DNA of 64,000 nucleotides from Psilocybe cubensis (lineage: Eukaryota): positions 1 through 64,000 of the forward strand of contig CM039007.1 of the NCBI GenBank assembly GCA_017499595.2, written 5' to 3'. Both the position numbers and the translations under genes were made by a program. Under the pieces are notes generated by a model. That model saw nothing but the letters and a program-made list of their open reading frames with translations. It was not told the DNA's origin and did no database searches. Shown here in pieces: positions 825 to 27,015 of this stretch. Position 1 is the first letter of the stretch, and each line of letters begins with the position of its first letter.

Positions 825-858
825 CTTCTTTCCATTTAACTCACAGTTTAAACAAGTC

Positions 859-6096: not shown

Positions 6097-9000
6097 ATGT
6101 CATCCCAATACTCTGCTGCATTCTCTCGTGCCATGTCCCCTACCCTGGACGCACTCACCCAGGCCGTCGTCAACAACACTGTCTTCGGCGTCAACGATGA
6201 AGCAGGCCGCCATAACGCTCTTATCGACGAGCTGGCCACTGTGGTCATCAAAAAAATAGCTGAGTGCCGCTCCGTTGACCAAGTCATAGACTGCGTCTTT
6301 TTTGACTATCGTGCTGCCCTCAGGGAGTTTCTCCTCAACCTCGCATCGTGGTGCGACAAGAGGGAAACAGTCAAGGCTAGCCTCGAGCGCCTTGAATCTG
6401 CCGTTAGCGCAGGCAACACGCCCAATCGCCTTAAGGTGAAGGCACCCGAGTTCCAACTTACGAAGGAATTCGCGGATGCCGGGTCAGCGGAGGCTCTTCG
6501 AGTCTCCACTACGTTCTCTTCCGCTCGTGATGCCTTCCAAAAGGCAATTAACGACGGCGCCGTTCAGGCGAAAAAGGACGAGCTGGCTTTTTGGGATGAT
6601 AAATGCGCGCTCAACTCTTGCTACGAAGCTGCTGCCCTCATCGTTAAGGCAACTTACGATGATCGCAAATCCAGCTACAAGCTCCCTGTTTTCTCTACAG
6701 ACAACAAGGGAGTTCGACGTATAGCAGAGTGGGTAGTGTCTCCGCAAAAGAAAGCCGAATGCAGTGCGCTGCAAACTATACTGCCGGCGATCTTTTCTCA
6801 TATCAAACAGATTGTCAACATGCGCCACCGCGCCTTGGCAATTAAGATTGAGAAAAAGCGGACGACTGCGGCAACAGCCGATGTCGAGATGGCCGATGCG
6901 ACCAAACCAGGTCCATCGATTCAATCCCTTATTGATAAGGGCTTGAATGCACGTCTCAAAAAGCTCAACCTTGGATCTGTGGGCAAGAAGGCAAGTTTTC
7001 GTAACCCTTCACCCATAATTCTGGACACTAATTATTACTCTAATTACCCAGACTTTGTCTGGCCAGAATTCGTCCAAGGCTCCTCAACCTCAGGCCAGGA
7101 AAGCTGGCCCTTCGAAACCCAAGTCGTCGTCGACGCCTTCGCAGAGGAAGCCTCAAACCAAGGCTTCCAACAAGGTCGACAACAAGAAGAAAGGGAAGGG
7201 GAGAGCTCCCGTCAAGAACAACGATCCAAAGGGAAAGGGAAAGGCAAGAGCCTAGACGCGCGGTCTACTGTAGCATCATTTACGTCGGTGAGACCCGCCT
7301 TCCCCAACTCTATTCCTGACGATATACTCACCATGACTAAAACAGACGCAGTTTCTTTTGTACACCTCAATACCCCGATTTCATTCTTATTGGCTGGCCA
7401 GTATAGATCTAGTGTACACTGTAGTCCTGGTGTTTCGGTCCCTGTTGATGTAGCAAATGATTTATCTCTTGGACTCAATTATATGTTTTTTACACTGCCT
7501 TCTAAAAATCTGATCATGCAAGCATGGAATGATTTTCAACGAAGAATAAGATGGCGTATCTATTTTTTGTTTAAAGAAGGCATGAATAAACCTTTCGATC
7601 CAGACTATGGAGTAAGCTCTAAAAAGAAAGAGAAACCTCCAATGTTACCGCAATTTATGGAACTTGGCCTTTCAATGGGACGTCGGTACGTTATTAAAAC
7701 GATCGCAAGTATCCCGGAAGAAGCCCTTAAAGAGATGCGAAAGCACGCGTTCTCTCCTAAAAGGGACAAGATCCAAAAGTTTCTTTTCGATAACAACTAT
7801 GTTATTACGATGACAGATAAGAATCTTGGCCTCGCGGTGTCTGAACGCGACTGGATATTAAGGAATGAGCTCAATCTTCTTGAAGATGAACGCAACTACG
7901 AAGAGTTAGAATTCGAAGTTGCGCAAGAAGTTATGAAGAGCAAAATGATTCAGATGCAAACTCTCGCACGTACCGTCGAAGATGAACATCTGTTTCTATT
8001 TGAACTTGGGTTGTCTCGATTCTTTCTATCGAATGTACCGGAAGACGGATCATCGTTCAAGTATCCTCAATTTCATGGTATACCTAAAATCCACAAGAAA
8101 CCTACTGGATTTAGGCCCATAATTCCGTGTCACTCTGTAGTATTTAATCCTGCAGCCAAGTTTGTATCAAAAGAGCTTAAGCCGATTATTAAATCGACTC
8201 CTTCAATCATTCACGGAACGAAGGATCTCTTTACGAGATTAAGCCAATTGCGTATAGACCCCAAACGACAATGGTATTTTGTCACCGGGGATGTAGTTGC
8301 TTTCTATCCCAATATTCCGTTGGACTTGTGCATCGAAATCGTTTGTAATATGTACGAGGAATGGTTACTCAACGCTTCGGAAGAGAACACTGCATTAGCC
8401 CATATTAATCCAAATTCGTTAGAGAATAACTTGGTTAAATTGGGCATCTTTAAACGTGCTATCGAGATTGGCAATACGCAATTGATAACACAACATGGGT
8501 CTAGATATTTTAGACAAAAAAATGGCCTCGCAATGGGCGTCGCGGATTCTCCGGACCTTGCTAACCTCTTTGGAGCCCATTTTGAAATAAAGTCAAAAAT
8601 CTTAGACCACCCAAACGTGGCCTTCTATGGAAGGTACATCGACGATTGTTTCGCAATTGTTTACGCCGAGTCCGAAGCACTTGCACTTAATCTTATTAAA
8701 GAAACAATAAAGTTCGATGGTTGTGTTATCGAATGGGCTGTTTCCTCGTCGGGATGTCAATTTCTCGATGCTTTCATATTCAAGGAGTCTGGAAAACTTC
8801 ATTGGAAGCCATTTGTCAAGACAGGAAACAACCGAGAACGAGTTCCATGGGTATCACATCATCCTTTGGACGTCAAACGTGGCGTCTACATTGGAGAGTT
8901 ATCCAGGTTAGCCGTGCTATGTAGTACTAAGGAAATCTACATCGGAGCAATTAGAGACCTTAACGCTCTCTATTTGATGCGCGGTTATCCCGAAAACCTA

Positions 9001-9630
9001 GTCATGTCTTGGTGTAAGAAGAATATACAAGAACGTTGGGAAAAGCGATTCGCTTTACGAGTCGCAGAGCACGACGAATCCATTCTTGTACTTAAAACCA
9101 GATTTGATCAGGCATGGAATTGGTTTTCAGCTGCTGAACTTGGAAAGACTGTTACCGAGTACTGGTCGGCATGGTATGAACATGCCGAGAAAGGTCTGTA
9201 TAGTGCAGACTCGTCCAGACCCCTTATCAAACCAGATCCAAATTACGTTCACGACCTCGATGATGTTCGCCCGGAGCTGTTCACACAGATCCTCGTGGAC
9301 GGAGAAACTGAGTTCGTACCGGATTTGAGGAAGATAGGACTACTCGGAAGTCGTTGGATAGTATCGCGAAAGCGCAATACTAATCTTTTCGACCTTGCAA
9401 ATGTGTGGAAGAAAACAGTCTTTCGTAAACTGGATGAAAACATCGCTGAAAAAGGTGGTGTTGTTCCCGAAACTCAAAACGTTAATGAAACTTATCATTC
9501 TGCTCTAGTTGAAGCTGCTGAACAGATAAGTATCGAAAGTGATAACGAGATAATACTTCATAGACGTTCAATCTCACAAGAGAGGGAACATCCAGAATTC
9601 GGCAGAATATCCAAATTTTACAACCGATGA
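6097..9630 (+). CDS. Penelope-like RT ORF, copy 2 (1177 aa)
   Basis: Near-identical to copy 1, with all RT motifs intact. Confidence 0.92.
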   Translation: MSSQYSAAFSRAMSPTLDALTQAVVNNTVFGVNDEAGRHNALIDELATVVIKKIAECRSVDQVIDCVFFDYRAALREFLLNLASWCDKRETVKASLERLESAVSAGNTPNRLKVKAPEFQLTKEFADAGSAEALRVSTTFSSARDAFQKAINDGAVQAKKDELAFWDDKCALNSCYEAAALIVKATYDDRKSSYKLPVFSTDNKGVRRIAEWVVSPQKKAECSALQTILPAIFSHIKQIVNMRHRALAIKIEKKRTTAATADVEMADATKPGPSIQSLIDKGLNARLKKLNLGSVGKKASFRNPSPIILDTNYYSNYPDFVWPEFVQGSSTSGQESWPFETQVVVDAFAEEASNQGFQQGRQQEEREGESSRQEQRSKGKGKGKSLDARSTVASFTSVRPAFPNSIPDDILTMTKTDAVSFVHLNTPISFLLAGQYRSSVHCSPGVSVPVDVANDLSLGLNYMFFTLPSKNLIMQAWNDFQRRIRWRIYFLFKEGMNKPFDPDYGVSSKKKEKPPMLPQFMELGLSMGRRYVIKTIASIPEEALKEMRKHAFSPKRDKIQKFLFDNNYVITMTDKNLGLAVSERDWILRNELNLLEDERNYEELEFEVAQEVMKSKMIQMQTLARTVEDEHLFLFELGLSRFFLSNVPEDGSSFKYPQFHGIPKIHKKPTGFRPIIPCHSVVFNPAAKFVSKELKPIIKSTPSIIHGTKDLFTRLSQLRIDPKRQWYFVTGDVVAFYPNIPLDLCIEIVCNMYEEWLLNASEENTALAHINPNSLENNLVKLGIFKRAIEIGNTQLITQHGSRYFRQKNGLAMGVADSPDLANLFGAHFEIKSKILDHPNVAFYGRYIDDCFAIVYAESEALALNLIKETIKFDGCVIEWAVSSSGCQFLDAFIFKESGKLHWKPFVKTGNNRERVPWVSHHPLDVKRGVYIGELSRLAVLCSTKEIYIGAIRDLNALYLMRGYPENLVMSWCKKNIQERWEKRFALRVAEHDESILVLKTRFDQAWNWFSAAELGKTVTEYWSAWYEHAEKGLYSADSSRPLIKPDPNYVHDLDDVRPELFTQILVDGETEFVPDLRKIGLLGSRWIVSRKRNTNLFDLANVWKKTVFRKLDENIAEKGGVVPETQNVNETYHSALVEAAEQISIESDNEIILHRRSISQEREHPEFGRISKFYNR

Positions 9631-10341
9631 AAAGAATACTAGCGCGTAAGGCGTAAAGCATTAGAAAAAAACCCTAACCGTAAGTATTCCTTGCTATAAA
9701 GTAACAAACATCTACTTACAAGCAACACTTTGGATTAAATAGCTAAACCTAAACCCTAAACCCTAAACCCTAAACCCTAACCTAACCCCAACCCTAAGCT
9801 AACTAAGTCTAACCTTAGTAGGAAGTAAGGTAGGCGTGTGAACTTCCGAACGGCATGTGATTGTGAAGGGCCGGATCTAATTTAGTACATGGGAAAAGTT
9901 ACTTAGTACTTCGGGAAAAGTTCCTTAGTACCGTGGAAACATTTTTGATGGACCGGATCATGAACTGTCCAATTAAGATTCACAACAATCAATCATTCTA
10001 TTGTTTGATTGTTAGGTAAGGACCCAGGTAAGCTATTTATACTCTAGACATGTGAATATTCCCATGTCGCGGTTACTCGGAGCCACGTAACCAGAGTAAT
10101 CTATATCCATGTGATTCACATCACAGTCAATAACCCACGATGTCAAAGAACAAAAGTGTTGGATCCACTTTTGACAGGTTACCATGTGCCACATCGACCC
10201 GTGACACTCTGTTCATCAGAGACCTGTCTAACTTGACAATAAACATTGACAGATTTGTGATAGTCGGTAAGATACATGACAGCTGCGCAGCATCACTTCA
10301 CGCGCTGTCATCGGATGTCTAGAACATTCCTTCTAAGAATA

Positions 10342-10404
10342 GCCACTGAAGAGTCTATAAAGACGAAAGGGCTGGTTGTTGGGATCCCCCAACAGCCCTC
10401 TGGC
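10342..10404 (+). ncRNA. Hammerhead ribozyme (variant B)
   Basis: Same sequence as 5925-5987. Confidence 0.92.
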
Positions 10405-10523
10405 CTTCTTTCTATTTCAAACTCACAGTTTAAACTAGTCGCTCGCACCTCGCTTCGCTCGGTGCTCGCTCCCCCCCTAAACCCTAAACCCTAAACCCTA
10501 AACCCTAAACCCTAAACCCTAAA

Positions 10524-10601
10524 GCCTTCTTTCTATTTCAAACTCACAGTTTAAACTAGTCGCTCGCACCTCGCTTCGCTCGGTGCTCGCTCCCCCCCTA
10601 A
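10524..10601 (+). mobile_element. ~78-nt pLTR 3'-end fragment flanked by telomeric repeats
   Basis: Starts GCCTTCTTTCT, 2 nt downstream of the predicted hammerhead cut site, and ends at CCCCCCCTAA. Confidence 0.85.
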
Positions 10602-10615
10602 CCCTAAACCCTAAA

Positions 10616-13600
10616 TCCAAAGGGAAAGGGAAAGGCAAGAGCCTAGATGCGCGGTCTAATGTAGTACCTTTTACGTCGGTGAGACCCGCCTTCCCCAACT
10701 CTATTCCTGACGATATACTCACCATGACTAAAACAGACGCAGTTTCTTTCGTACACTTACATACTCCAATATCATTCTTGTTGGCTGGCCAGTATCGTAG
10801 TAGTGTACATTGTAGTCCTGGTGTTTCTGTCCCTGTTGATGTAGCAAACGATCTCTCTCTCGGACTTAATTATATGTTTTTCACTCTGCCTTCTAAAAGT
10901 CTGATCATGCAAGCATGGAATGATTTCCAACGAAGAATAAGATGGCGTATCTATTTTTTGTTTAAGGAAGGCATGAATAAACCTTTTGATCCAGATTATG
11001 GAGTAAGCTCAAAAAAGAAAGAGAAACCTCCTGTATTACCGCAATATATGGAACTTGGCCTTTCGATGGGACGTCGGTACGTGCAACGCACGATCGCAAG
11101 TATCCCGGAAGAAGCCCTTACGGAGATGCGAAAGCACGCGTTCTCTCCTAAAAGGGACAAGATCCGTAAGTTTCTTATCGATAACAACTATGTTATTACG
11201 ATGACAGATAAGAATCTTGGCCTCGCGGTGTCTGAACGCGACTGGATATTAAGGAATGAGCTCAATCTTCTTGAAGATGAACGTAATTACGAAGAGTTAG
11301 AATTCGAAGTTGCGCAAGAAGTTATGAAGAGCAAAATGATTCAGATGCAAACGCTCGCACGTACTGTCGAAGATGAACATCTGTTTCTATTTGAACTTGG
11401 GTTGTCTCGATTCTTTCTATCGAATGTACCGGAAGACGGATCATCGTTCAAGTATCCTCAATTTCATGGTATACCTAAAATCCACAAGAAACCTACTGGA
11501 TTTAGGCCCATAATTCCGTGTCACTCTGTAGTATTTAATCCTGCAGCCAAGTTTGTATCAAAAGAGCTTAAGCCGATTATTAAATCGACTCCTTCAATCA
11601 TACACGGAACGAAGGATCTCTTTACGAGATTAAGCCAATTGCGTATAGACTCCAAAAGACAATGGTATTTTGTCACTGGAGATGTAGTTGCTTTCTATCC
11701 CAATATTCCGTTGGACTTGTGCATCGAAATCGTTTGTAGTATGTACGAGGAATGGTTACTCAACGCTTCGGAAGAAAACACTGCATTAGCCCATATTAAT
11801 CCAAATTCGTTAGAGAATAACTTGGTTAAATTGGGCATCTTTAAACGTGCTATCGAGATTGGCAATACGCAATTGATAACACAACATGGGTCTAGATATT
11901 TTAGACAAAAAAATGGCCTCGCAATGGGCGTCGCGGATTCTCCGGACCTTGCTAACCTCTTTGGAGCCCATTTTGAAATAAAGTCAAAAATCTTAGACCA
12001 CCCAAACGTGGCCTTCTATGGAAGGTACATCGACGATTGTTTCGCAATTGTTTACGCCGAGTCCGAAGCACTTGCACTTAATCTTATTAAAGAAACAATA
12101 AAGTTCGATGGTTGTGTTATCGAATGGGCTGTTTCCTCGTCGGGATGTCAATTTCTCGATGCTTTCATATTCAAGGAGTCTGGAAAACTTCATTGGAAGC
12201 CTTTTGTCAAGACAGGAAACAACCGAGAACGAGTTCCATGGGTATCACATCATCCTTTGGACGTCAAACGTGGCGTCTACATTGGAGAGTTATCCAGGTT
12301 AGCCGTGCTATGTAGTACCAAGGAAATCTACATCGGAGCAATTAGAGACCTTAACGCTCTCTATTTGATGCGCGGTTATCCCGAAAACCTAGTCATATCT
12401 TGGTGTAAGAAGAATATACAAGAACGTTGGGAAAAGCGATTCGCTTTACGAGTCGCAGAGCACGACGAATCCATTCTTGTACTTAAAACCAGATTTGATC
12501 AGGTATGGAATTGGTTTTCAGCTGCTGAACTTGGAAAAACTGTTACCGAGTACTGGTCGGCATGGTATGAACATGCCGAGAAAGGTTTGTATAGTGCAGA
12601 CTCGTCCAGACCCCTTATCAAACCAGATCCAAATTACGTTCACGACCTCGATGATGTTCGCCCGGAGCTGTTCACACAGATCCTCGTGGACGGAGAAACT
12701 GAGTTCGTACCGGATTTGAGGAAGATAGGACTACTCGGAAGTCGTTGGATAGTATCGCGAAAACGCAATACTAATCTTTTCGACCTTGCAAATGTGTGGA
12801 AGAAAACAGTCTTTCGTAAACTGGATGAAGACATCGCTGAAAAAGGTGGTGTTGTTCCCGAAACTCAAAACGTTAATGAAACTTATCATTCTGCTTTAGT
12901 TGAAGCTGCTGAGCAGATAAGTATCGAAAGTGATAACGAGATAATACTTCATAGACGTTCAATCTCACAAGAGAGGGAACATCCAGAATTTGGCAGAATA
13001 TCCAAATCTTACAACCGATGAAAAGAATACTAGCGCTTAAGGCGTAAAGCATTAGAAAAAAACCCTAACCGTAAGTATTCCTTGCTATAAAGTAACAAAC
13101 ATCTACTTACAAGCAACACATTGGATTGAATAGCTAAACCTAAACCTAAACCCTAAACCCTAAACCCTAAACCCTAACCTAACCCCAACCCTAAGCTAAC
13201 TAAGTCTAACCTTAGTAGGAAGTAAGGTAGGCGTGTGAACTTCCGAACGGCATGTGATTGTGAAGGGCCGGATCTAATTTAGTACATGGGAAAAGTTACT
13301 TAGTACTTCGGGAAAAGTTCCTTAGTACCGTGGAAACATTTTTGATGGACCGGATCATGAACTGTCCAATTAAGATTCACAACAATCAATCATTCTATTG
13401 TTTGATTGTTAGGTAAGGACCCAGGTAAGTTATTTATACTCTAGACATGTGAATATTCCCATGTCGCGGTTACTCGGAGCCACGTAACCAGAGTAATCTA
13501 TATCCATGTGATTCACATCACAGTCAATAACCCACGATGTCAAAGAACAAAAGTGTTGGATCCACTTTTGACAGGTTACCATGTGCCACATCGACCCGTG

Positions 13601-13878
13601 ACACTCTGTTCATCAGAGACCTGTCTAACTTGACAATAAACATTGACAGATTTGTGATAGTCGGTAAGATACATGACAGCTGCGCAGCATCACTTCACGC
13701 GCTGTCATCGGATGTCTAGAACATTCCTTCTAAGAATAGCCACTGAAGAGTCTATAAAGACGAAAGGGCTGGTTGTTGGGATCCCCCAACAGCCCTCTGG
13801 CTACTTTCCATTTAACTCCCAGTTTAAACTAGTCGCTCGCACCTCGCTTCGCTCGGTGCTCGCTCCCCCCCTAAACCC
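10616..13878 (+). mobile_element. Family-1 copy 3, 5'-truncated and capped by telomeric repeats; RT frame open to 13021
   Basis: CCCTAAA joins directly to TCCAAAGGGAAAGGG (ORF1/RT boundary). The 3' pLTR is complete. Confidence 0.9.
13739..13801 (+). ncRNA. Hammerhead ribozyme (variant B, stem I extended to TAGCCA/TGGCTA)
   Basis: Core and all three stems are intact. Confidence 0.92.
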
Positions 13879-13910: not shown

Positions 13911-14088
13911 CTTCACGCGCTGTCATCGGATGTCTAGAACATTCCTTCCAAGAATAGCCACTGAAGAGTCTATAAAGACGAAAGGGCTGGTTGTTGGGAT
14001 CCCCCAACAGCCCTCTGGCCTTCTTTCTATTTCAAACTCACAGTTTAAACTAGTCGCTCGCACCTCGCTTCGCTCGGTGCTCGCTCCC
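13911..14088 (+). mobile_element. ~180-nt pLTR 3' fragment including a hammerhead (13957-14019)
   Basis: Flanked by CCCTAAA tracts on both sides. Confidence 0.85.
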
Positions 14089-14139: not shown

Positions 14140-17100
14140 CCTAAACCCTAAACCCTAAGCCCTAACCTAACCCCAACCCTAAGCTAACTAAGTCTAACCT
14201 TAGTAGGAAGTAAGGTAGGCGTGTGAACTTCCGAAAGGCATGTGATTGTGAAGGGCCGGATCTAATTTAGTACATGGGAAAAGTTACTTAGTACCTCGGG
14301 AAAAGTTCCTTAGTACCGTGGAAACATTTTTGATGGACCGGATCATGAACTGTCCAATTAAGATTCACAACAATCAATCAATTGATTGTTAGGTAAGGAC
14401 CCAGGTAAGCTATTTATACTCTTGACATGAGAATATTCCCATGTCACGGTTACTCGGAGCCACGTAACCAGAGTATTTTATATCCATGTGATTCACATCA
14501 CAGTCAATAACCCACGATGTCAAAGAACAAAAGTGTTGGATCCACTTTTGACAGGTTACCATGTGCCACATCGACCCGTGACACTCTGTTCATCAGAGAT
14601 CTGTCTAACTTGACAATAAACATTGACAGATTTGTGATAGTCGGTAAGATACATGACAGCTGCGCAGCATCACTTCACGCGCTGTCATCGGATGTTCCAG
14701 AACATTCCTTCTAAGAATAGCCACTGAAGAGTCTATAAAGACGAAAGGGCTGGCTGCTGATAACAATCAACAGCCCTCTGGCTACTTTCCATTTAACTCA
14801 CAGTTTAAATTAGTCGCTCGCACCTCGCTTCGCTCGGTGCTCGCTCCCCCCCTAAACCCAACGACTTTGCTATTATCCATCAGCCACTATGTCATCCCAA
14901 TACTCTGCTGCTTTCTCTCGTGCCATGTCCCCCACCCTGGACGCACTCACCCAGGCCGTCGTCAACAACACCGTCTTCGGCGTCAACGATGAAGCAGGCC
15001 GCCATAACGCTCTGATCGACGAGCTGGCCACTGTGGTCATCAAAAAAATAGCTGAGTGCCGCTCCGTTGACCAAGTCATAGACTGCGTCTTTTTTGACTA
15101 TCGTGCTGCCCTTAGGGAGTTTCTCCTCAACCTCGCATCGTGGTGCGATAAGAGGGAAACAGTCAAGGCTAGCCTCGAGCGCCTTGAATCTGCCGTTAGC
15201 GCAGGCAACACACCCAATCGCCTTAAGGTGAAGGCACCCGAGTTCCAACTTACGAAGGAATTCGCGGATGCCGGGTCAGCGGAGGCTCTTCGAGTCTCCA
15301 CTACGTTCTCTACCGCTCGTGACGCCTTCCAAAAGGCAATTAACGACGGCGCCGTTCAGGCGAAAAAGGACGAGCTGGCTTTTTGGGATGATAAATGCGC
15401 GCTCAACTCTTGCTACGAAGCTGCTGCCCTCATCGTTAAGGCAACTTACGATGATCGCAAATCCAGCTACAAGCTCCCTGTTTTCTCTACAGACAACAAG
15501 GGAGTTCGACGTATAGCAGAGTGGGTAGTGTCTCCGCAAAAGAAAGCCGAATGCAGTGCGCTGCAAACTATACTGCCGGCGATCTTTTCTCATATCAAAC
15601 AGATTGTCAACATGCGCCACCGCGCCTTGGCAATTAAGATTGAGAAAAAGCGGATGACTGCGGCAACAGCCGATGTCGAGATGGCCGACGCGACCAAACC
15701 AGGTCCGTCGATTCAATCCCTTATTGATAAGGGCTTGAATGCACGTCTCAAGAAGCTCAACCTTGGATCTGTGGGCAAGAAGGCAAGTTTTCGTAACCCT
15801 TCACCCATAATTCTGGATACTAATTATTACTCTAATTACCCAGACTTTGTCTGGCCAGAATTCGTCCAAGGCTCCTCAACCTCAGGCCAGGAAAGCTGGC
15901 CCTTCGAAACCCAAGTCGTCGTCGACGCCTTCGCAACGCAAGCCTCAAACCAAGGCTTCCAACAAGGTCGACAACAAGAAGAAAGGGAAGGGGAGAGCTC
16001 CCGTCAAGAACAACGATCCAAAGGGAAAGGGAAAGGCAAGAGCCTAGACGCGCGGTCTACTGTAGCATCATTTACGTCGGTGAGACCCGCTTTCCCCAAC
16101 TCTATTCCTGACGATATACTCACCATGACTAAAACAGACGCAGTTTCTTTCGTACACTTACATACTCCAATATCATTCTTGTTGGCTGGCCAGTATCGTA
16201 GTAGTGTACATTGTAGTCCTGGTGTTTCTGTCCCTGTTGATGTAGCAAACGATCTCTCTCTCGGACTTAATTATATGTTTTTCACTCTGCCTTCTAAAAG
16301 TCTGATCATGCAAGCATGGAATGATTTTCAACGAAGAATAAGATGGCGTATCTATTTTTTGTTTAAGGAAGGCATGAATAAACCTTTTGATCCAGATTAT
16401 GGAGTAAGCTCAAAAAAGAAAGAGAAACTCCCAGTATTACCGCAATACATGGAACTTGGCCTTTCGATGGGACGTCGGTACGTGCAACGCACGATCGCAA
16501 GTATCCCGGAAGAAGCCCTTACGGAGATGCGAAAGCACGCGTTCTCTCCTAAAAGGGACAAGATCCGTAAGTTTCTTATCGATAACAACTATGTTATTAC
16601 GATGACAGATAAGAATCTTGGCCTCGCGGTGTCTGAACGCGACTGGATATTAAGGAATGAGCTCAATCTTCTTGAAGATGAACGTAACTACGAAGAGTTA
16701 GAATTCGAAGTTGCGCAAGAAGTGATGAAGAGCAAAATGATACAGATGCAAACGCTCGCACGTACTGTCGAAGATGAACATCTGTTTCTATTTGAACTTG
16801 GGTTGTCTCGATTCTTTCTATCGAATGTACCGGAAGACGGATCATCGTTCAAGTATCCTCAATTTCATGGTATACCTAAAATCCACAAGAAACCTACTGG
16901 ATTTAGGCCCATAATTCCGTGTCACTCTGTAGTATTTAATCCTGCAGCCAAGTTTGTATCAAAAGAGCTTAAGCCGATTATTAAATCGACTCCTTCAATC
17001 ATACACGGAACGAAGGATCTCTTTACGAGATTAAGCCAATTGCGTATAGACTCCAAAAGACAATGGTATTTTGTCACTGGAGATGTAGTTGCTTTCTATC

Positions 17101-19272
17101 CCAATATTCCGTTGGACTTGTGCATCGAAATCGTTTGTAGTATGTACGAGGAATGGTTACTCAACGCTTCGGAAGAAAACACTGCATTAGCCCATATTAA
17201 TCCAAATTCGTTAGAGAATAACTTGGTTAAATTGGGCATCTTTAAACGTGCTATCGAGATTGGCAATACGCAATTGATAACACAACATGGGTCTAGATAT
17301 TTTAGACAAAAAAATGGCCTCGCAATGGGCGTCGCGGATTCTCCGGACCTTGCTAACCTCTTTGGAGCCCATTTTGAAATAAAGTCAAAAATCTTAGACC
17401 ACCCAAACGTGGCCTTCTATGGAAGGTACATCGACGATTGTTTCGCAATTGTTTACGCCGAGTCCGAAGCACTTGCACTTAATCTTATTAAAGAAACAAT
17501 AATGTTCGATGGTTGTGTTATCGAATGGGCTGTTTCCTCGTCGGGATGTCAATTTCTCGATGCTTTCATATTCAAGGAGTCTGGAAAACTTCATTGGAAG
17601 CCATTTGTCAAGACAGGAAACAACCGAGAACGAATTCCATGGGTATCACATCATCCTTTGGACGTCAAACGTGGCGTCTACATTGGAGAGTTATCCAGGT
17701 TAGCCGTGCTATGTAGTACCAAGGAAATCTACATTGGAGCAATTAGAGACCTTAACGCTCTCTATTTGATGCGCGGTTATCCCGAAAACCTAGTCATGTC
17801 TTGGTGTAAGAAGAATATACAAGAACGTTGGGAAAAGCGATTTGCTTTACGAGTCGCAGAGCACGACGAATCCATTCTTGTACTTAAAACCAGGTTTGAT
17901 CAGGTATGGAATTGGTTTTCAGCTGCTGAACTTGGAAAGACTATTACCGAGTACTGGTCGGCATGGTATGAACATGCCGAGAAAGGTCTGTATAGTGCAG
18001 ACTCGTCCAGACCCCTTATCAAACCAGATCCAAATTACGTTCACGACCTCGATGATGTTCGCCCGGAGCTGTTCACACAGATCCTCGTGGACGGAGAAAC
18101 TGAGTTCGTACCGGATTTGAGGAAGATAGGACTACTCGGAAGTCGTTGGATAGTATCGCGAAAGCGCAATACTAATCTTTTCGACCTTGCAAATGTGTGG
18201 AAGAAAACAGTCTTTCGTAAACTGGATGAAGACATCGCTGAAAAAGGTGGTGTTGTTCCCGAAACTCAAAACGTTAATGAAACTTATCATTCTGCTTTAG
18301 TTGAAGCTGCTGAACAGATAAGTATCGAAAGTGATAACGAGATAATACTTCATAGACGTTCAATCTCACAAGAGAGGGAACATCCAGAATTCGGCAGAAT
18401 ATCCAAATCTTACAACCGATGAAAAGAATACTAGCGCGTAAGGCGTAAAGCATTAGAAAAAAACCCTAACCGTAAGTATTCCTTGCTACAAAGTAACAAA
18501 CATCTACTTACAAGCAACACATTGGATTAAATAGCTAAACCTAAACCTAAACCCTAAACCCTAAACCCTAAGCCCTAACCTAACCCCAACCCTAAGCTAA
18601 CTAAGTCTAACCTTAGTAGGAAGTAAGGTAGGCGTGTGAACTTCCGAAAGGCATGTGATTGTGAAGGGCCGGATCTAATTTAGTACATGGGAAAAGTTAC
18701 TTAGTACCTCGGGAAAAGTTCCTTAGTACCGTGGAAACATTTTTGATGGACCGGATCATGAACTGTCCAATTAAGATTCACAACAATCAATCAATTGATT
18801 GTTAGGTAAGGACCCAGGTAAGCTATTTATACTCTTGACATGAGAATATTCCCATGTCACGGTTACTCGGAGCCACGTAACCAGAGTATTTTATATCCAT
18901 GTGATTCACATCACAGTCAATAACCCACGATGTCAAAGAACAAAAGTGTTGGATCCACTTTTGACAGGTTACCATGTGCCACATCGACCCGTGACACTCT
19001 GTTCATCAGAGATCTGTCTAACTTGACAATAAACATTGACAGATTTGTGATAGTCGGTAAGATACATGACAGCTGCGCAGCATCACTTCACGCGCTGTCA
19101 TCGGATGTTCCAGAACATTCCTTCTAAGAATAGCCACTGAAGAGTCTATAAAGACGAAAGGGCTGGCTGCTGATAACAATCAACAGCCCTCTGGCTACTT
19201 TCCATTTAACTCACAGTTTAAATTAGTCGCTCGCACCTCGCTTCGCTCGGTGCTCGCTCCCCCCCTAAACCC
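14140..19272 (+). mobile_element. Family-1 copy 4 (5' edge blurred in telomeric repeats); hammerheads at 14720-14782 and 19133-19195
   Basis: 4413-bp period. Both pLTRs share the diagnostic TGGCTAC...AAATTAGTC tail. Confidence 0.9.
14889..18422 (+). CDS. Penelope-like RT ORF, copy 4 (1177 aa)
   Basis: RT motifs are intact. Confidence 0.92.
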   Translation: MSSQYSAAFSRAMSPTLDALTQAVVNNTVFGVNDEAGRHNALIDELATVVIKKIAECRSVDQVIDCVFFDYRAALREFLLNLASWCDKRETVKASLERLESAVSAGNTPNRLKVKAPEFQLTKEFADAGSAEALRVSTTFSTARDAFQKAINDGAVQAKKDELAFWDDKCALNSCYEAAALIVKATYDDRKSSYKLPVFSTDNKGVRRIAEWVVSPQKKAECSALQTILPAIFSHIKQIVNMRHRALAIKIEKKRMTAATADVEMADATKPGPSIQSLIDKGLNARLKKLNLGSVGKKASFRNPSPIILDTNYYSNYPDFVWPEFVQGSSTSGQESWPFETQVVVDAFATQASNQGFQQGRQQEEREGESSRQEQRSKGKGKGKSLDARSTVASFTSVRPAFPNSIPDDILTMTKTDAVSFVHLHTPISFLLAGQYRSSVHCSPGVSVPVDVANDLSLGLNYMFFTLPSKSLIMQAWNDFQRRIRWRIYFLFKEGMNKPFDPDYGVSSKKKEKLPVLPQYMELGLSMGRRYVQRTIASIPEEALTEMRKHAFSPKRDKIRKFLIDNNYVITMTDKNLGLAVSERDWILRNELNLLEDERNYEELEFEVAQEVMKSKMIQMQTLARTVEDEHLFLFELGLSRFFLSNVPEDGSSFKYPQFHGIPKIHKKPTGFRPIIPCHSVVFNPAAKFVSKELKPIIKSTPSIIHGTKDLFTRLSQLRIDSKRQWYFVTGDVVAFYPNIPLDLCIEIVCSMYEEWLLNASEENTALAHINPNSLENNLVKLGIFKRAIEIGNTQLITQHGSRYFRQKNGLAMGVADSPDLANLFGAHFEIKSKILDHPNVAFYGRYIDDCFAIVYAESEALALNLIKETIMFDGCVIEWAVSSSGCQFLDAFIFKESGKLHWKPFVKTGNNRERIPWVSHHPLDVKRGVYIGELSRLAVLCSTKEIYIGAIRDLNALYLMRGYPENLVMSWCKKNIQERWEKRFALRVAEHDESILVLKTRFDQVWNWFSAAELGKTITEYWSAWYEHAEKGLYSADSSRPLIKPDPNYVHDLDDVRPELFTQILVDGETEFVPDLRKIGLLGSRWIVSRKRNTNLFDLANVWKKTVFRKLDEDIAEKGGVVPETQNVNETYHSALVEAAEQISIESDNEIILHRRSISQEREHPEFGRISKSYNR

Positions 19273-19287
19273 TAACCCTAAAACCCT

Positions 19288-19369
19288 TGGCCTTCTTTCC
19301 ATTTAACTCACAGTTTAAACAAGTCGCTCGCACCTCGCTTCGCTCGGTGCTCGCTCCCCCCCTAAACCC
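19288..19369 (+). mobile_element. 82-nt pLTR fragment beginning exactly at the hammerhead cleavage site
   Basis: AAACCCT|TGGCCTTCTTTCC...CCCCCCCTAAACCC matches 821-902. Confidence 0.88.
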
Positions 19370-19387
19370 TAAACCCTAAACCCTAAG

Positions 19388-22300
19388 CCAGTGCGCTGGC
19401 ACGATCAGTACGGGTGGATCGCCTTCATACCCTTGGCGCCATCATTCGTGTCCTTGCCGTTTAATTTTTTGTGCTGGTCTCCAAAGATTTTGCGCAATAA
19501 ACCGCACAAGTCTCCGGCCACGTATGAAATGGAGTGGCACAGCGTAAAAGAATGGCGCCAATTGGATGAAAACATAACCCTTCTGTGCGAAAAGATCCGC
19601 TTATGGTGTCGCGTTCCTGGAACCCCACCTCCTAGCCCCAAAAGCTTCGGTTATGATCTCAGGTATAGCTCTGAAGCAGACGCGCAAAGGAGCTTTGAGG
19701 CCACCCGAAACGCGTTTATCCTGTGGATGGGCTACCTGTCGTATCTCGTCGCCCAAAGTCGTCGCGAGATCTATTCAAAGCACATCAAGCACGATCCCAA
19801 AAGCCCCGTCCCTGCATGGCATGAACGCCTCCGCGCTGAGCATCCTGACATCTCAGAAGTATGGCTGGATGGCTTGTATCATTCCAACGTATTTTCGTTT
19901 AACGCCAGAACCCCTCGTGTCGGCATGGTCTACGAGTTGAGCAGCACCCACGCGACACGCCCTCCCATCGAATGGCTTCTGGAACACCATGTTCCAGTCT
20001 ATTATCCGTGGCGGATGCGGGAAGAGGAAATCTTCCTCACCCATAAAATACTCAATCTCGAACTTCGCCCCCCGCGCGACTTGTTGGCGGCGACACTTAC
20101 AGACCTATTCAAGTCAATGGACGTGTCTCTCGCAGCCGCCTTTGCGCGCAAATTTTTTAATAAATCTCATTCGACGGAGGGCCTCACGATGAAGTTGCTG
20201 GGAGATGAGTACTCCACTACTTTGGTGTATTCTATCCTCAGTAACGATTTCGCCCACAACTCAGAGGCATTGGACCAGCACATGTCCCAGCCGTATGAAG
20301 AATTGGAACGGAAGCTCCAAAAGAGAGACGAGGAACAGCGTCAGCTCGCCATTGACAGCGCCAACCTGCCTACGCTGCGCATGATTGAACTGGCGAATGA
20401 AAACCACAAGCTGCTGACCTCCGTGCATGACGACTGGGATGCTTACTGGGCTGCAAGGGTGGAAGAACGGCGACGGATTCTGGCCAAAGAGACGCCAGAA
20501 GCTAGACAGGCTCGGCTGAACCGAGAGAACAACCCATCGGTGGTACGTAGCAAAGTATTTGTCTGGAAAACGCTGGTGTCCACAGAGGGAGCCAGCGTTT
20601 ACATGCGCGAACACATCGCAACGTCACGAAACAGCATCGAGGAGGCCAAACTTTGCCCACACCGCAAGGTCTACAACGGTGTGACCGACGAATGGGATCT
20701 CTGTCGAGATTTGGAACCACCAGCCGAGTTGGCAGGCGCATCCGCAATGTTGGACCAGCGCAATCAGGCACAGACAAGGCCTGCTAGAGGCCAGCATCGC
20801 CGCGGTAGAGGTGTACGTCCCGCAAAACAACCCAGGCAGCACCCGAAACCAGCACCTGCCGAGGAAGAGTGGGAAGGCGTACCCTGGTACGACACCATTG
20901 AACCTGACCCCGATGCGCCGGTGGCCTCAACGTCGGCCCTTCCCCCCGCTCGTAATCCTTCCCCACCCCCTTTGCCTCCAAACAACCCGCCTGTCATTGA
21001 GGTTCCGACACCCTCGTCATCGCGAGATAGACCCCGCCGCGCACCCACGACACCCCCACGGCCCACACTAGGACGCCGACCGCGCAGTCGCTCGCCAACA
21101 CCCCCAGAGGTTGCAACGCGCTCTCGCCCACGAGCACGTCGTTCCCCAGAGAGCGAGTCGCGGGTCCAACAGAGCCCCCCTGCCGTCGTCGAAGATTTCG
21201 AGATGGAGGAAGCAGGCCCATCTGTTGAGGATGAAAATGCGGATGTTGAGATGACCACGGACGCGCCCGCCACGGATGTTGTGCAACCCCAGCCCATTAC
21301 ACCCGACAACGATATGGTCAGATGCCTGCGCCAATCTTACGGCTACCTCCCTGGCACAACGACGACGCCCTGTGCCGCTGCAGACTGGGATGAACTGGTC
21401 GAAACCTTTGGGTTTACAGAGTTACTTACCCCAGAAGTTGCCCTGGACGCTCAACAACACATCAAACAGTTTTATCTGGCTTGCATTGAACCCACAAGCA
21501 CAGAAATGCCCGCCGCCCTCTCTGACCTCAATACGCACAGCCTGACATCCCTGTCTCGTCTGCTGGACCTCTCGCAAATACACCGCCCCCATGAAAATCT
21601 GTTTGTTTTTTCAGAACCTCGTTCAGAGGAACACGAGTGGATGTTGGGTGTCGAAACGGCGGAGATCGCCCTTTACGTGTGTCGGCTCAGGTTAGAGCAC
21701 TCCTGGGCTCGCATCGACTCCCTCACAAAAATGCTGCTGGAGAGAGGTGTGCCCTGTCGCACTCTCATGGGCATTGAAATGTCGGGTCGCTGCTCCACTG
21801 TCCAGGAGCCGTACACCCCTCGATCTGTCCGCCCGTCAGCGTATAAATTTGGTGTTGATGACTTTGAAGCATACCGATTGCAATGCGAGAACATCATCAA
21901 ACACCAACAACACGGTCGGGCTGCCTTGCTGAGGGGTGGATTGGTGGGTAGGATAGCCAGTGAGTTTCTGAGCGTCGACGATGGGCTGGCTGGCCCCTCT
22001 AAGGAAATCATTCAGAACCGGCAGGGGTTCATCGTGCCAGCTGGCGACACGACTTGGTGTTATTGCGACGACCAGCTCACCGAGAACGAGCTGTCCATTA
22101 TATGCGGCACCTACACGCTGTACACAGGTATGTTTTCCTTGTTTATTCTCAATTTTATGCACTAACAACATTTTTCTCAGCTACTAAAGGTCAAATAACT
22201 GTAAAATCGTGGTTCCCTCCCCCGAACCTGTGGCAGGTGCCCCCCAGCATGAACGGATCACAATGGGTGGAATGGACGCCTGCCAACGAGGCATGGTACC

Positions 22301-22485
22301 GTGAACGCGTAGAAGACATCCGCACTCGGCAGGCCCAGCCATTAACAAGAGTGCAATGGAAATCAATATTGCGCGGCACTCCTCCCAGTAGGAAGCTTCT
22401 GGCGGCAGCGTCTCAACGAGCTCAGGCCTTTGTCAACGGGCACGTACCGGTGGTGCCAACTTATCGTGTTCGCCCAGGCCTGTAG
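19388..22485 (+). CDS. Large hypothetical protein, probably 5'-truncated by telomere addition; intron 22128-22180
   Basis: The 924-codon frame is open from the telomere junction. A GTATGT...CTAAC...CTCAG intron joins YT|ATKGQITVKSWFPPP in frame. The middle is Pro/Arg-rich. Function is not recognised. Confidence 0.75.
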
Positions 22486-22724
22486 TTACATTGTCAATGT
22501 AAGTGTTTTTTCATTTAAGAATAGCCCATTCTAACAAAAATATGTAGATATATGCGTGTTTTTTTGGTCAATATGTCATATAAATTTATTTTTTGGTGTC
22601 TACACAAGAGAGCTCGCGTGAGATATATACAAGTTGATATCAGGGTAAGATGACTAGTTATAAAAAATCTAACAAAATTACAGTACAGCAAGGCCGAGGT
22701 GTATCAAATACAAAACAGCGAAAT

Positions 22725-23550
22725 GGCAGCGACAGGAGGCGAGTAGAGGCAGCGCGGCGGCAGCGACAGGCGGCGACGGCGGGACGACAGGCGGCGACGG
22801 CGGAATGACAGGCGGGGAGGGGAGGCGGCAGTGGCAGCGGCGGCCCGGTGTGGCGGCGCAACAACACGCAGCAGAGTGCGTGTCGTGGTGGGCGGCGAGT
22901 GGACGCGACGGCGGGACGACGCGCGGTGACGTCGTGACGACAGGCGGCGACGGCGGGACGACAGGCGGCGACGGCGGGACGACAGGCGTTGACAGCGGAA
23001 TGACAGGCGGCGAGGCAGGCGGCAGCGGCAGCGGCGGCCCGGTGTGGCGGCGCAACAACACGCAGCAGAGTGCGTGTCGTGGTGGGCGGCGAGTGGACGC
23101 GACGGCGGGACGACGCGCGGTGACGTCGTGACGACAGGCGGCGACGGCGGGATGACACGCGCTGACGGCGGAATGACAGGCGGCGAGGGAAGGCGGCAGC
23201 GGCATGACAGGGGACGAGGAGAGGCGGCAGCAGCAGCAGCGGCACGGGTGTGGCGGCGCAACAACACGCAGCAGAGTGCGTGTTGTGGTGGGCGGCGACT
23301 AGACGCGACGGCGGGACGACGCGCGGTGACGTCGTGACGACAGGCGGCGACGGCGGGATGACACGCGGTGACGGCTGAACGACAGGCGTCGAGTGGAGGT
23401 GGCGGCAGCAGCAGCGGCCCGGAGGTGGCAGCGCAACAACATGCAGCGGCAAGCGCAGGCGTCGGGCAGACGGCGAGCGCAAGCTTTGGGACGGCGAGCG
23501 CTGGCGTTGGGACGGCGAGCGCAAGCTTTGGGACGGCGAGCGCTGGCATC
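22725..23550. repeat. GC-rich nested tandem repeats (~190-200 bp unit x3 built from GGCGACGGCGGGACGACA-like subunits)
   Basis: GGTGTGGCGGCGCAACAACACGCAGCAGAGTGCGTGT recurs near 22847, 23041 and 23247. Confidence 0.85.
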
Positions 23551-23865
23551 GGGAGACAGGCGGGAGGCCGGCCTCCAGTGCCTGTCAAAAATTTATTTTT
23601 AGACGGAGGCCGGCCTCCAGTGCCTGTCAAAAGTTATTTTTAGACGGAGGCCGGCCTCCAGTGGCCTCCATCAATTTGGAGGCCGGCCTCCATAAATTAC
23701 ACATTTAATTACGTAGCACCTCCGTATGTACAAAATAAAATATTTTGAAAGTGTATTTGGGGGTTTTTGGGGTCCAGGAATCCGAATCTGGCATCAGATT
23801 TCAGGAATTCTGAACAGGAGGCCCAATGCAACGAAGGCCCCCCCTTCGGGGGGGAATAAGCCTAG
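23550..23865 (+). mobile_element. Terminus of a large DNA transposon (copy 1), superfamily unresolved
   Basis: Four GGAGGCCGGCCTCC palindromes, then a C7-TTC-G7 hairpin (23838-23854) and AATAAGCCTAG. The same end occurs at 41700-42121, and homology stops abruptly there. Confidence 0.75.
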
Positions 23866-26033
23866 ACGCGTGGAAAGATTTCGAAAGACGGGTGCGTTGG
23901 CGCCTGTACTTCTCCTTTATACAAAAGGAGTCTGATTATGATCCTGACTTTGAGTACGAACGCACTCCCAGTGAATACGTACCTAAGTTTCCGCAATATA
24001 TCGAAAGAGGGTTCGCTCGCGGTGAAGCTTTTGTATCAAAAGCAATTCTTAATATTCCGCCCGAACAAGACAAGGACATTAGAAAATCGTTCAGTCCGAG
24101 TTATTCCTTAATCGAAAAGTTTTTACTGGATAACGACTATGTTGTTACTGGAACAGATAAGAACCTAGGCATCGCGGTGTCCGAACGAACCTGGATCATT
24201 AATAAATGTCTCGAATTACTTAGTAATCCGCTCGATTACGAGTGCATTACTCCCCTAAGAAGAGACAAATTCTTTAAGCTACAATGCGATACTGCTGTAG
24301 AACTAGCTAACTTTGCGCTAGTTAATAAAGTGCGATACTACGGCCAACTTCAACACTTCTTGCGGTCCAACGCACCTCCATACGAGTTAGTTGGCGGAAA
24401 GTGGAAGTGGGATGATAATAATCCAGTGAAGGTGCCTGTCTTTTACGGGATACCCAAAATTCACAAAACACCCGTAAAGATGCGGCCTATTATACCGTGT
24501 CACTCCGCGATTCAAAATCCCGCGGCCAAATATTGTAGCAAAAAACTTAAACCGCTTATCAAGGCGGCGCCATCCATTATACATGGAACCAAAGACCTGG
24601 CGATAAAATTAAGTAAGCTCGAGTTGAATACGAGTCGTCAGTACTTTATTGTCACTGGCGACGTAGTTGCCTATTACCCGAATATACCAATCGATTCATG
24701 TCTACAAATTGTGTCTGATATGTACGACGAGTATTATACGGCCGAAGAGAATAGAGCATGGGATGAAGATCCCGACTACGTCCCGATTTCACCCGATGAA
24801 CACGAACTGTTCAGACGATGCTTGAGATTCGGAAATACTCAGCTTATAGCACAGTTTCAAGATAAATTCTACTTGCAGAAAAGAGGATTAGCGATGGGGG
24901 TCGCGTCTTCGCCGGACTTAGCCAATCTCTACGGCTGGCATTTCGAGCGCGCAAGTGGAATTATGAATCACCCGTCCGTAGCTTTCTATGGCAGGTACAT
25001 CGACGATTGTCTTGCAATCGTTTACGCTTCTTCAGAACTAGAAGCCGTAAACATTATGAAGACTTTAACATTCGCCGGCTGTGTAATAGAATGGTCCGCT
25101 TCAAAGGCTCAGCCTTTCCTCGACATGCTTCTCTACATCGATTTTGCCAATAATCGACGTCTAGAACACATGCCGTACCGCAAGAGCGGAAACCATCAGG
25201 AAAGAATTCCATTCGTTAGCCATCATCCCATGGACGTCAAAAGAGGCACGTTCATCGGCGAGATGAGTAGGATGGCCACCCTCAGTAGTACTATAGTCCA
25301 CTACCGAGATGCGATCAAACAACTTGTTGCTTTGTATATCGCGCGTGGTTATCCGAGCGGCTTGGTATCTAAATGGATGCGAGAAAACATCAAAGTACGA
25401 TGGCAAAAACGGCTGAATGTCCCTGTCCGTGCGCACGAAGACGTACTTGTTCTCAAATCAGAATTTAATACCGCATGGAATTGGTTTTCCGCGCAAGAGC
25501 TCAAAGACGTACTTGTGGAATATTGGCAGAACTATATGATAAAAGCTGCCAATGGGTCGTTCGATGATGAATACCCCATTTTGTCCCATCGTACTGGAAG
25601 CCTGGAAGGGCCGACCATTCCCTATGAGGTGCTTACGCAAATCAGAGTGAGTGATCTGCCTTCTCCTTTCCATATGGTGGACATCAGGAAAATTGATGTC
25701 CCACGAAGAAGAATTCTTGTGTCGCGGAAACGCACCAAGAATCTTTTCGACTATACAAGTCTTTGGAAAAAACTCGTCGTTGAGAAGCTCGACAAGGATG
25801 TTCTTAATCCTGACGACAACGCTAATATGGCGCATGATATTAACAACGCCTCGAACGATTCCCGCTCCGGTGGGTCTCTAGTAGGGCCGCGCGAAATTGT
25901 GCTGCCAGGCGAAGTCGACGATGCTCCGTCTCCCATGTCTATAAATCTTCACGCGGGAAGTGATGATCCCATGGAAGGCGATTTGGAGTACGTCGAACGT
26001 CAAGATGTCCTTCTCGATAACTTATTCAGATAA
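23866..26033 (+). CDS. Family-2 Penelope-like RT, N-terminally truncated
   Basis: FYGIPKIHK, MRPIIP, TGDVVAYYPNIP, QKRGLAMG, GRYIDDCL, PFLD and HHPMDVKRG. The first ~12 codons of the listed ORF (from 23826) come from the transposon end. Confidence 0.88.
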
Positions 26034-26879
26034 AGCAGCACACGCTTAGATGTGTAAGGGTCTACACATAGGCCTTCTGCGGCGTGTCTAAACTAGACGT
26101 TTAATGCTAAAACCTGGTAATTCCTCTTCTGTTGTTGTATGACTTCGTCGAGGTTCTGTCCTGCTAGTTTGGGAGTGTAATTAGATTTCCCTTGGGGTCG
26201 CCCATCTAGTAAAGATCAGGCAGTACGCTGGAAACAGCTGGTCTGGGCCTTAGGGTATCCAGTCAGTGACTGCTCCAACGTCCCGATTCCGAAAGGACAA
26301 AGGTGGTTCGACTCGTGAACGAATGAAAATGCATTACTCTGATGGCTTGCCATAGCCGTAATGGATAAGTTCAGCACTCTTGCGTTATAATATTATTCCT
26401 AACGAAAACCTATATTTGTTTTCACAGGACTTACGGTCCAACCGCGCTCGTCGATGAGGGTATCGGCGAATATTCTTGGGAAGCGGTGTCCACATAACCA
26501 GTGGTAGAGAGTTTTTAACACATTCTAAAAAAACCCTAACCGTAAGTCGACTCGATTAATCTCGAGATACTTTGTTGTATTGATTATTCGGCGGTTTTGG
26601 CTTTAGCTAACCCTAAACCCTAAACCCTAAACCCTAAATGCCCTAACCCTACTAGCGTGGTAGGGTTGTCACATGACGTGATGAGTCACGCGACCTAGTA
26701 AGTCACATGACTCGGCCGGCATTTCGGCGATCAAGCCGAAATTCAAGCGGAGTTTAAAATTCGGAGATATTACTAATCCTCGGAGAAATTGCCAAACTTC
26801 GGAACAACAAAGGTGAAAACTCGCTCCGAGGTTTCTTTAACTTCGGACCTCGGATTAATATAGGTAAAATGGCTATATA

Positions 26880-26949
26880 TGGACCTGATGAGCCTTATAA
26901 AAAGGCGAAAAAGTGGAAGGGAGCTTCTCCAAGCCCCCACTTTTGTCCA
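26880..26949 (+). ncRNA. Type I hammerhead ribozyme of family 2; predicted cleavage after 26944 (UUU)
   Basis: TGGAC-CTGATGA-GCCTT/ATAAA/AAGGC-GAAA-AAGTGG...CCACTT-TT-GTCCA. Confidence 0.88.
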
Positions 26950-27015
26950 CAAGCCTTAGGCCATCCAGCCTTTTCTAACCAACTCGCAGCTCGCTTCGCT
27001 CGCTGCTCGTTGGGC

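Follow-up and report, generated by a model that had tools for sequence, protein, structure and literature searches.

Short retroelement inserts that begin at or near a predicted hammerhead cleavage site at a chromosome end of Psilocybe cubensis

Layout of the chromosome end

The window, that is, the whole stretch of DNA analysed here, comprises the first 64,000 nt of contig CM039007.1 of Psilocybe cubensis (assembly GCA_017499595.2). Telomere repeats of the form (CCCTAAA)n fill its first 200 nt. A probe made of two such units gave 74 matches, all of them on the + strand, and the left edge of the window is therefore the chromosome end, read on the C-rich strand. Self-BLAST and direct reading revealed that the first 19.4 kb are a head-to-tail stack of a single retroelement family (family A), the successive pieces of which are parted by 14-70 nt of telomere repeats (Table 1). 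In addition to the units U1-U4, this stack includes two very short inserts, hereafter mini-inserts 1 and 2, each consisting of an element tail. Family A is followed by a second family (family B). A further copy of the latter starts at 27045, right after a 29-nt telomere tract, at a position equivalent to the start of the 5′ UTR, and is therefore without an upstream pLTR of its own. No mini-insert of family B was found.

Table 1. Coordinates of the features at the chromosome end and of orphan tails in metagenomic relatives
Feature	Position	Strand	Remark
Terminal telomere tract (CCCTAAA)n, C-rich strand	1-200	+	
U1, full-length element, Coprina-type EN(-) Penelope-like by its architecture	201-5303	+	self-BLAST, direct reading
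U1 pLTRs	201-902 and 4612-5313	+	identity 702/702
U1 RT ORF, 1176 aa	932-4462	+	
Hammerheads of family A other than that of the U1 downstream pLTR, type I	759-828, 5922-5991, 10339-10408, 13736-13805, 13954-14023, 14717-14786, 19130-19199	+	
Hammerhead of the U1 downstream pLTR, type I	5170-5239	+	predicted cut 5231/5232
Predicted cuts, family A	after 820, 5231, 5983, 10400, 13797, 14015, 14778, 19191		
Tail of U1, 72 nt, predicted 3′ cleavage product	5232-5303	+	
Telomere tract between U1 and U2	5304-5357		
U2, full-length	5358-10474	+	95.5% identity to U1
U2 pLTRs	5358-6067 vs 9775-10484	+	identity 710/710
Telomere tracts flanking mini-insert 2	10475-10523 and 10598-10614		
Mini-insert 2, U2-type tail, 74 nt, opens GCCTTC...	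10524-10597	+	5′ end at +3 of the predicted cut
U3, 5′-truncated within the ORF, telomere-repeat cap	10615-13868	+	5′ end = U1 position 2056
178-nt insert including an entire hammerhead	13911-14088	+	starts 104-105 nt 5′ of its own predicted cut
U4, full-length, helix I of 6 bp (TGGCTA type)	14159-19262	+	
U4 pLTRs	14159-14859 vs 18572-19272	+	identity 701/701
Irregular telomere tract between U4 tail and mini-insert 1, 25 nt	19263-19287	+	units of 7, 6 and 8 nt
Mini-insert 1, U1-type tail, 72 nt, TGGCC..., C17 absent	19288-19359	+	5′ end at +1
Telomere tract 3′ of mini-insert 1	19360-19386	+	
Family B, second Coprina family, 5′-truncated element	19387-27015	+	
Family B hammerhead	26879-26951	+	predicted cut after 26944; tail 72 nt
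Orphan tail in relative L015	2731-2774		start at +16/17
Orphan tail in relative L023	4523-4544		start at +25
Orphan tail in relative L026	from 4710		start at -12

The runs of telomere repeats that part the inserts measure just 14-70 nt and become irregular by the junctions, for example at 19263-19287 and 5304-5357, where units of 6, 7 and 8 nt occur. Such tracts may have been copied from the ends of element RNAs or made in error-prone first rounds, rather than by telomerase at steady state. About 36 kb from the end, on the + strand, there is a cluster of short degenerate telomere-like repeats (36326-36489); it may be a former chromosome end, now internal, at the inner limit of the retroelement pile. 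Host telomeres are built here from the 7-mer CCCTAAA, an unusual unit for an agaric; a literature search on the Psilocybe telomere repeat gave nothing relevant. Among the metagenomic relatives of the elements, some have the 7-mer (L003, L008-L010, L053 and L057-L062) and others the 6-mer CCCTAA, both at their 3′ ends and in their internal tracts, and this difference presumably tracks their hosts.

Identity of the elements

Each full unit of family A contains a 1176-aa ORF with the motifs TDKNLG and RYIDD, both of which are invariant across 16 aligned relatives. Searches with the RT ORF retrieved 320 homologues at E≤0.001, the closest being Psilocybe cubensis proteins with 98-99% identity. A Pfam scan of the ORF at 932-4462 detected no RT family at E≤0.1 and just a weak match to DUF6026; PF00078 is precomputed on a database protein that is 98% identical. 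The GIY-YIG domain is absent both from this Pfam scan and from the precomputed domains of the best 120 of the 320 homologues. Protein-based scans of viral contigs and genome contigs returned 0 relatives. Family A is telomeric in position, has pLTRs and has a 3′ end joined to telomere repeats. With its fungal host, single RT ORF and published architecture, it matches the Coprina-type EN(-) Penelope-like elements (PLEs) as described in the accessible parts of PMC8557442, PMC13159263 and PMC6431247, an assignment that draws on these features.

The two pLTRs are 100% identical inside each full unit, and 95.5-99.4% identical between units, which points to a single template having given rise to both copies at every insertion, as in true LTRs. 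The linker from the upstream tail to the 5′ UTR is CCCTAAACCC in U1, U2 and U4 alike. Together, the identity of the pLTRs and the common linker suggest that one template regenerates both pLTRs, either via a template jump or via terminal redundancy, and an RNA end of defined position close to the hammerhead might play a part in this regeneration.

Hammerhead motif and predicted cut

Each family-A pLTR harbours, 71-74 nt 5′ of the telomere repeat, a motif of the form GCCA-CTGAAGAG-helix II-CGAAA-helix III-TC^TGGC, with the predicted cut located 3′ of the C in ...CAGCCCTC^TGGCC. The core of this motif (CTGAAGAG...GAAA) occurs 8 times in family A. All elements of the catalytic core (CUGANGA, GAAA and U-H before the cut) are present in these 8 copies as well as in the family-B copy. 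Family A has a C at position H17; over a set of 35 distinct motifs, U and C each occupy this position in 16 and A does so in 3.

We searched the window and 80 metagenomic loci encoding RT relatives (474,151 nt) with a strict descriptor of the three helices. It matched 47 times on the sense strand and never on the antisense one, nor did any of 20 shuffles give a match, and 45 of the 47 motifs have a telomere-type hexamer 41-80 nt downstream. Bare cores followed by CCCTAA within 60-220 nt number 55; the full descriptor is passed by 45 of them, and several of the 10 failures resemble hammerheads with one mismatch. A covariance model made from 10 sequences gave 52 matches, all 52 on the sense strand. 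MAFFT misplaced the 3′ strands when aligning 34 hammerheads, and the covariance-model alignment was used instead. In the resulting alignment of 42 distinct sequences, which was fitted to the model and hence favours the structure, 91.9% of cells are paired and 14 of the 16 pairs display changes on both sides. None of 500 shuffles reached the observed pairing or covariation values, and sliding the partners by 1-3 columns left 33-50% of cells paired. As for folding energies, 1.0-2.8 kcal/mol separate the hammerhead fold from the lower MFE in family A; in family B, the MFE structure contains the same three helices and the core-enforced fold is 1.3 kcal/mol higher.

At the gathering score, the Rfam hammerhead models had 0 matches in the whole window. 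The best sub-threshold matches were to RAGATH-1-hammerhead (26.8 bits; gathering score 56.3) and Hammerhead_3 (19.5; gathering score 48.5). In the variant found here, helix I is short (4 bp in the TGGCC type and 6 bp in the TGGCTA type), whereas helix III is long. A scan of viral contigs for the hammerhead-core pattern found 0 occurrences. The available portions of PMC4209133 characterise the hammerheads of fungal telomeric PLEs that have a large helix III as stable, active monomers, and include in vitro kinetics for the motif from Serpula lacrymans. Taken together, the type-I hammerhead motif is real in family A and its relatives, and self-cleavage is predicted for it here. Because the hammerhead is well supported by the descriptor, the covariation and the fold, the cut site is fixed independently of insert boundaries.

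Three model-found hammerhead homologues have an altered GAAA core box (L012 1239-1306, L019 53-120 and L021 370-437). They are probably inactive variants, as judged from this box, on elements that otherwise look intact.

The tail downstream of the predicted cut

The tail with which the element RNA ends contains a hairpin, a C-run and about 1.4 telomere-complementary repeats. In the U1 tail, the conserved hairpin has the stem GCACC/GGTGC around TCGCTTCGCTCG, and a run of seven C adjoins the telomere repeat. Across families, the centre of the hairpin is TCGC-TTCG-CTCG or CTTCGG, and its stems covary (GCACC/GGTGC, GCACGAC/GTCGTGC, GCCCC/GGGGC, GCAGC/GCTGC, CAACTTT/AAAGTTG and others). In many Coprina-like families, 5-10 nt separate the tail hairpin (5270-5300 in the window) from the telomere repeat that follows. 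Both mini-inserts retain this hairpin, which is probably the recognition element of the RT.

Two mini-inserts begin at or next to the predicted cut

The preliminary description of this DNA, made from the sequence alone, had placed the start of one short insert immediately 3′ of the predicted scissile C and that of a second one 2 nt further in, and both placements agree with our analysis. Position 19288 is the T of TGGCC and is preceded by a telomeric T, so that C17 is absent; the insert at 10524 begins with the second G of TGGCC, that is, at +3. For the first insert, described as 82 nt long (19288-19369), the start holds; its span is identical to U1 5232-5313 (82/82) and resolves into the tail of 72 nt and a further 10 nt of telomere repeat. 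Both mini-inserts are, as had been stated, sandwiched by telomeric repeats, and both keep the tail hairpin and the telomere-complementary end, features that a template would require. Mini-insert 1 differs in sequence from the tail of the neighbouring U4 and is therefore not a local duplication. Moreover, since one mini-insert carries a U1-type tail and the other a U2-type tail, they represent separate events.

The region is highly repetitive, and tail copies between telomere tracts might in principle be mis-joins in a long-read assembly; the public contigs, which measure 58-420 nt, leave the junctions unconfirmed. However, the two mini-inserts differ from each other in subfamily sequence as well as in the length and irregularities of the flanking tracts, and comparable orphan tails are present in independent metagenome contigs. 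We regard an assembly artefact as highly improbable. Public contigs placed on 4650-5303 showed no joints and no telomeric loose end at 5232, an outcome that carries no weight, since a piece across the junction would be anchored by only about 30 nt; their loose ends at 5221 correspond to loop-III subfamily variants.

We mapped 144 transitions from telomere to non-telomere sequence in 81 sequences (the window and the 80 metagenomic loci). Only 19288 and 10524 are within 3 nt of a cut site. Four of the 144 fall within the last 150 nt plus tail of an element, namely these two, that of the 178-nt piece and one in L023. If three short inserts are placed uniformly over the last 250 nt, the probability that at least two ends hit a 3-nt target is 0.00043; it becomes 0.0021 with all 6 short inserts, relatives included, 0.012 under the harshest uniform null tried and 2e-6 across the whole 5.1-kb unit. 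Two of the three short family-A inserts start at +1 or +3. On the G-strand, mini-insert 1 reads ...GGCCA-A-GGGTTTT..., which would fit run-off of the RT at a cleaved RNA end followed either by the addition of an extra A or by direct alignment of telomerase. Mini-insert 2, two bases short, might reflect incomplete run-off or nibbling.

Ends away from the cut and alternative explanations

None of the three orphan tails identified among the 80 metagenomic relative loci starts at its own cut (Table 1). The search for orphan tails was repeated with 8 extra hammerheads found by the covariance model and yielded no new short inserts; a ninth model-found hammerhead (L049), with no telomere-type hexamer after its tail, was left out. 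The segments between telomere tracts in relatives, 33 of which were listed, are mostly the intron-like piece considered below or whole pLTRs rather than mini-inserts. Two of the orphan-tail junctions are located on telomere-like microhomology, CCTAC in L015 (2720-2735) and CCCCAAC in L026 (4700-4722), with little or no tract between copies, which suggests a direct template switch onto the 3′ end of the next RNA. Similarly, the full-length family-A units begin inside a degenerate telomere-like tract at the 5′ edge of the pLTR. With the junctions of relatives and the full-length starts on telomere-like sequence, and the family-B copy at 27045 right next to a telomere tract, such sequence in the nascent cDNA generally sets the ends of inserts, which makes it the chief competitor of a ribozyme origin.

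These junctions bear on the possibility that the mini-inserts are ordinary products of 5′ truncation, or of erosion at the terminus, that were then healed. Their ends would lie where a G-rich or telomere-like 3′ end allowed telomerase or the RNA of the next element to engage, and their closeness to the cut would be coincidental and would have been helped by the upstream CCCT. In addition to the microhomology in L015 and L026, the internal telomere-like tracts at the ends of the full-length units and of the family-B copy at 27045 are consistent with such a process, and BLAST extends the match of mini-insert 1 by 4 nt into CCCT with a 1-nt gap. Telomere-capped 5′-truncated copies are, moreover, the norm for such elements in the accessible text of PMC6431247. 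However, microhomology at CCCT on uncleaved RNA would have retained C17 (CCCTCTGGCC), which is absent; the junction of mini-insert 2 (TAAA|GCC) is devoid of microhomology; and two independent ends fall within a 3-nt target, with probabilities of 0.00043 to 0.012 under uniform nulls. All in all, truncation with healing appears unlikely as the source of both ends.

The preliminary description also pointed to an insert that extends across the cut, and the 13911-14088 fragment does so: it includes the whole hammerhead and starts 104-105 nt upstream of the cut. Together with L026, which likewise spans the cut, this fragment makes it clear that uncleaved RNA serves as a template. RT might have arrested on uncleaved RNA, having copied the tail and melted helix I, with a stall at the base of helix III, after which the freed end would have been healed by telomere addition. 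Helix III begins one base 5′ of C17 and has 7 enforced pairs, to which the U2-type adds 5 inner pairs, so that an RT halted just ahead of this helix, by one or a few bases, would generate ends at about 0 to +3, within about 1 nt of where run-off would leave them. Against arrest, the helix III structure was passed by four family-A units and by the 178-nt fragment, L026 ends within the 3′ strand of helix III rather than ahead of the helix, and the tail hairpin, which is equally stable, does not give rise to a second cluster of stall-type ends. Furthermore, the 3′ end of a stalled product would presumably be buried in an RNA-DNA hybrid, as opposed to the free end left by run-off. Arrest at helix III, which predicts nearly the same end as run-off, appears to us unlikely.

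No full-length unit (0/3) begins at +1 of its upstream pLTR. It follows either that cleavage is inefficient on ORF-bearing RNA or that such cleaved RNA is not used as a template. The same result weighs on the idea of a transcription start site (TSS) at TGGCC within the pLTR, with a short RNA copied up to its capped 5′ end. A TSS in the pLTR has precedent in Penelope and Chlamys elements (PMC8557442, in the part available). Nevertheless, the transcript would have to be 72 nt long, and full-length copies would be expected to begin at +1 of their upstream pLTR, which none of the three does. Copying up to a capped RNA end often adds an extra G, and there is no such G at the mini-insert junctions. 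A start site at this position seems to us very unlikely.

A possible origin of the mini-inserts from self-cleaved RNA

We hold, with moderate confidence, that the mini-inserts are cDNAs of the 3′ product of self-cleavage that were subsequently re-capped. According to this scenario, elements would be added one by one to the G-rich overhang of the Psilocybe cubensis chromosome end. The sense strand of every element points from the chromosome end to the centromere. The tail (72-74 nt) would anneal to the overhang and recruit the RT. Immediately 5′ of this tail, the type-I hammerhead of the 3′ pLTR would cleave itself in vivo and release a small tail RNA endowed with a ribozyme-made 5′ end and all 3′ cis signals. 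Priming on the G-overhang annealed to the CCCUAAA end of this RNA, RT would copy the tail and run off after 72 nt, or stop or be nibbled 2 nt short. Telomere repeats would then be added to the new DNA end, the source being telomerase or the repeat-bearing RNA of the next element. The outcome would be a telomere-tail-telomere mini-insert with its 5′ edge at the position of the cut. U1-U4 and the 178-nt fragment, being longer, would stem from RNAs left uncleaved at the 3′ hammerhead.

Run-off from self-cleaved RNA, with subsequent capping by telomerase, had already been proposed in the preliminary description. The run-off proposal is supported in part by the ends at +1 and +3, which come from separate events, and, in the insert at +1, by the lack of exactly C17; it is weakened by the number of events, only two with one of them 2 nt off, and by the relatives and full-length units, none of which (0/3 in either case) starts at the cut. 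Two cases cannot prove ribozyme activity in living cells; they may be a genomic trace of such activity. For an animal PLE, the accessible part of PMC11167929 reports that no RNA-seq reads begin or end at the hammerhead site and that cleavage is dispensable in vitro. A more far-reaching version of the scenario is also conceivable, in which the hammerhead routinely works in vivo, its product is a self-sufficient mini-template of about 72 nt corresponding to the tail and copied by the RT of the element onto chromosome ends, the mini-inserts are regular, countable telomere patches and the cleaved end is a strong-stop-like transfer point from which identical pLTRs are regenerated at each insertion. 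The identity of the pLTRs within units and the common linker agree with this version without proving it. We consider this version doubtful.

Relation to known systems

EN-deficient PLEs of the Coprina and Athena types, with a 3′ hammerhead and reverse-complement telomeric repeats, were reportedly described by Gladyshev and Arkhipova in 2007, Cervera and de la Pena in 2014 and Arkhipova et al. in 2017. The elements of family A resemble Coprina/Athena PLEs, as far as these are covered by the accessible parts of PMC6431247 and PMC8557442, in their telomeric location, head-to-tail piles, pLTRs and 5′ truncation by short telomere tracts, as well as in the type-I hammerhead near the 3′ end and the telomere-complementary repeats at the 3′ end itself. 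The long helix III is shared with the fungal PLE hammerheads presented in the available text of PMC4209133. Unlike in rotifer elements, where in the sources at hand the repeats are immediately 3′ of the hammerhead, a hairpin-bearing tail of 71-74 nt intervenes here. The function of the hammerhead in PLEs is called unclear in PMC8557442, in the part accessible to us.

The closest functional analogue may be the HDV-like ribozyme of R2, the self-cleavage of which makes the 5′ end of the RNA and is mirrored in the 5′ junction of the insertion (PMC3774820 and PMC3414825, accessible portions). The R2 ribozyme belongs to another class and its cut sets the 5′ end of a functional full-length element. 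Unlike in R2, the cut considered here is 72 nt from the 3′ end and would give a non-coding, dead-end insert. In retroviruses, minus-strand strong-stop DNA is a short cDNA extending from the primer to the 5′ end of the RNA, and is an obligatory intermediate transferred to the other RNA end; by contrast, the short product in family A would be fixed in the chromosome and re-capped. Retrozymes, too, involve a small, ORF-less RNA processed by hammerheads and thought to be copied by a PLE-type RT (10.64898/2026.07.22.740005 and PMC7229834, in the parts available). They have two bounding hammerheads, circularise and insert in tandem inside chromosomes, whereas here a single cut would yield a linear 72-nt piece that is added at the chromosome end.

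The element type, the 3′ hammerhead, the telomere-complementary repeats and the telomere-capped 5′-truncated copies have thus already been published. We found no mention of inserts beginning at the hammerhead cut in the PLE literature, the coverage of which was incomplete, so that a prior mention is possible; the footprint of the cut at the edge of a mini-insert is possibly new. If the run-off reading is true, chromosome ends record the 5′ end of an RNA made by a ribozyme, self-cleavage in vivo can be measured from assemblies alone and the 72-nt tail suffices for priming at the telomere. If the coincidence dissolves with more data, the mini-inserts are ordinary 5′-truncated copies of a known element.

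An intron-like segment between the RT ORF and the downstream pLTR

An intron-like segment, GTAAGT...TAG, is located at 4512-4574 on the + strand, in the internal telomere-like tract that separates the RT ORF from the downstream pLTR, with further copies at 9680-9742, 13071-13133, 18472-18534 and 26542-26606. Intron retention is known for PLEs; an intron at this tract is not mentioned in the portions of the PLE literature examined. The pattern GT[AG]NG[TC]...YAG, with a length of 43-102 nt, occurs 24 times on the sense strand, spread over 20 of the 81 sequences, and never on the antisense one. Relatives with the segment include L009 (3798-3856), L030 (14544-14607) and L058 (3353-3419). By its sequence, the segment looks like a retained spliceosomal intron, and its excision would join the two half-tracts into a single, nearly in-phase run of telomere repeats.
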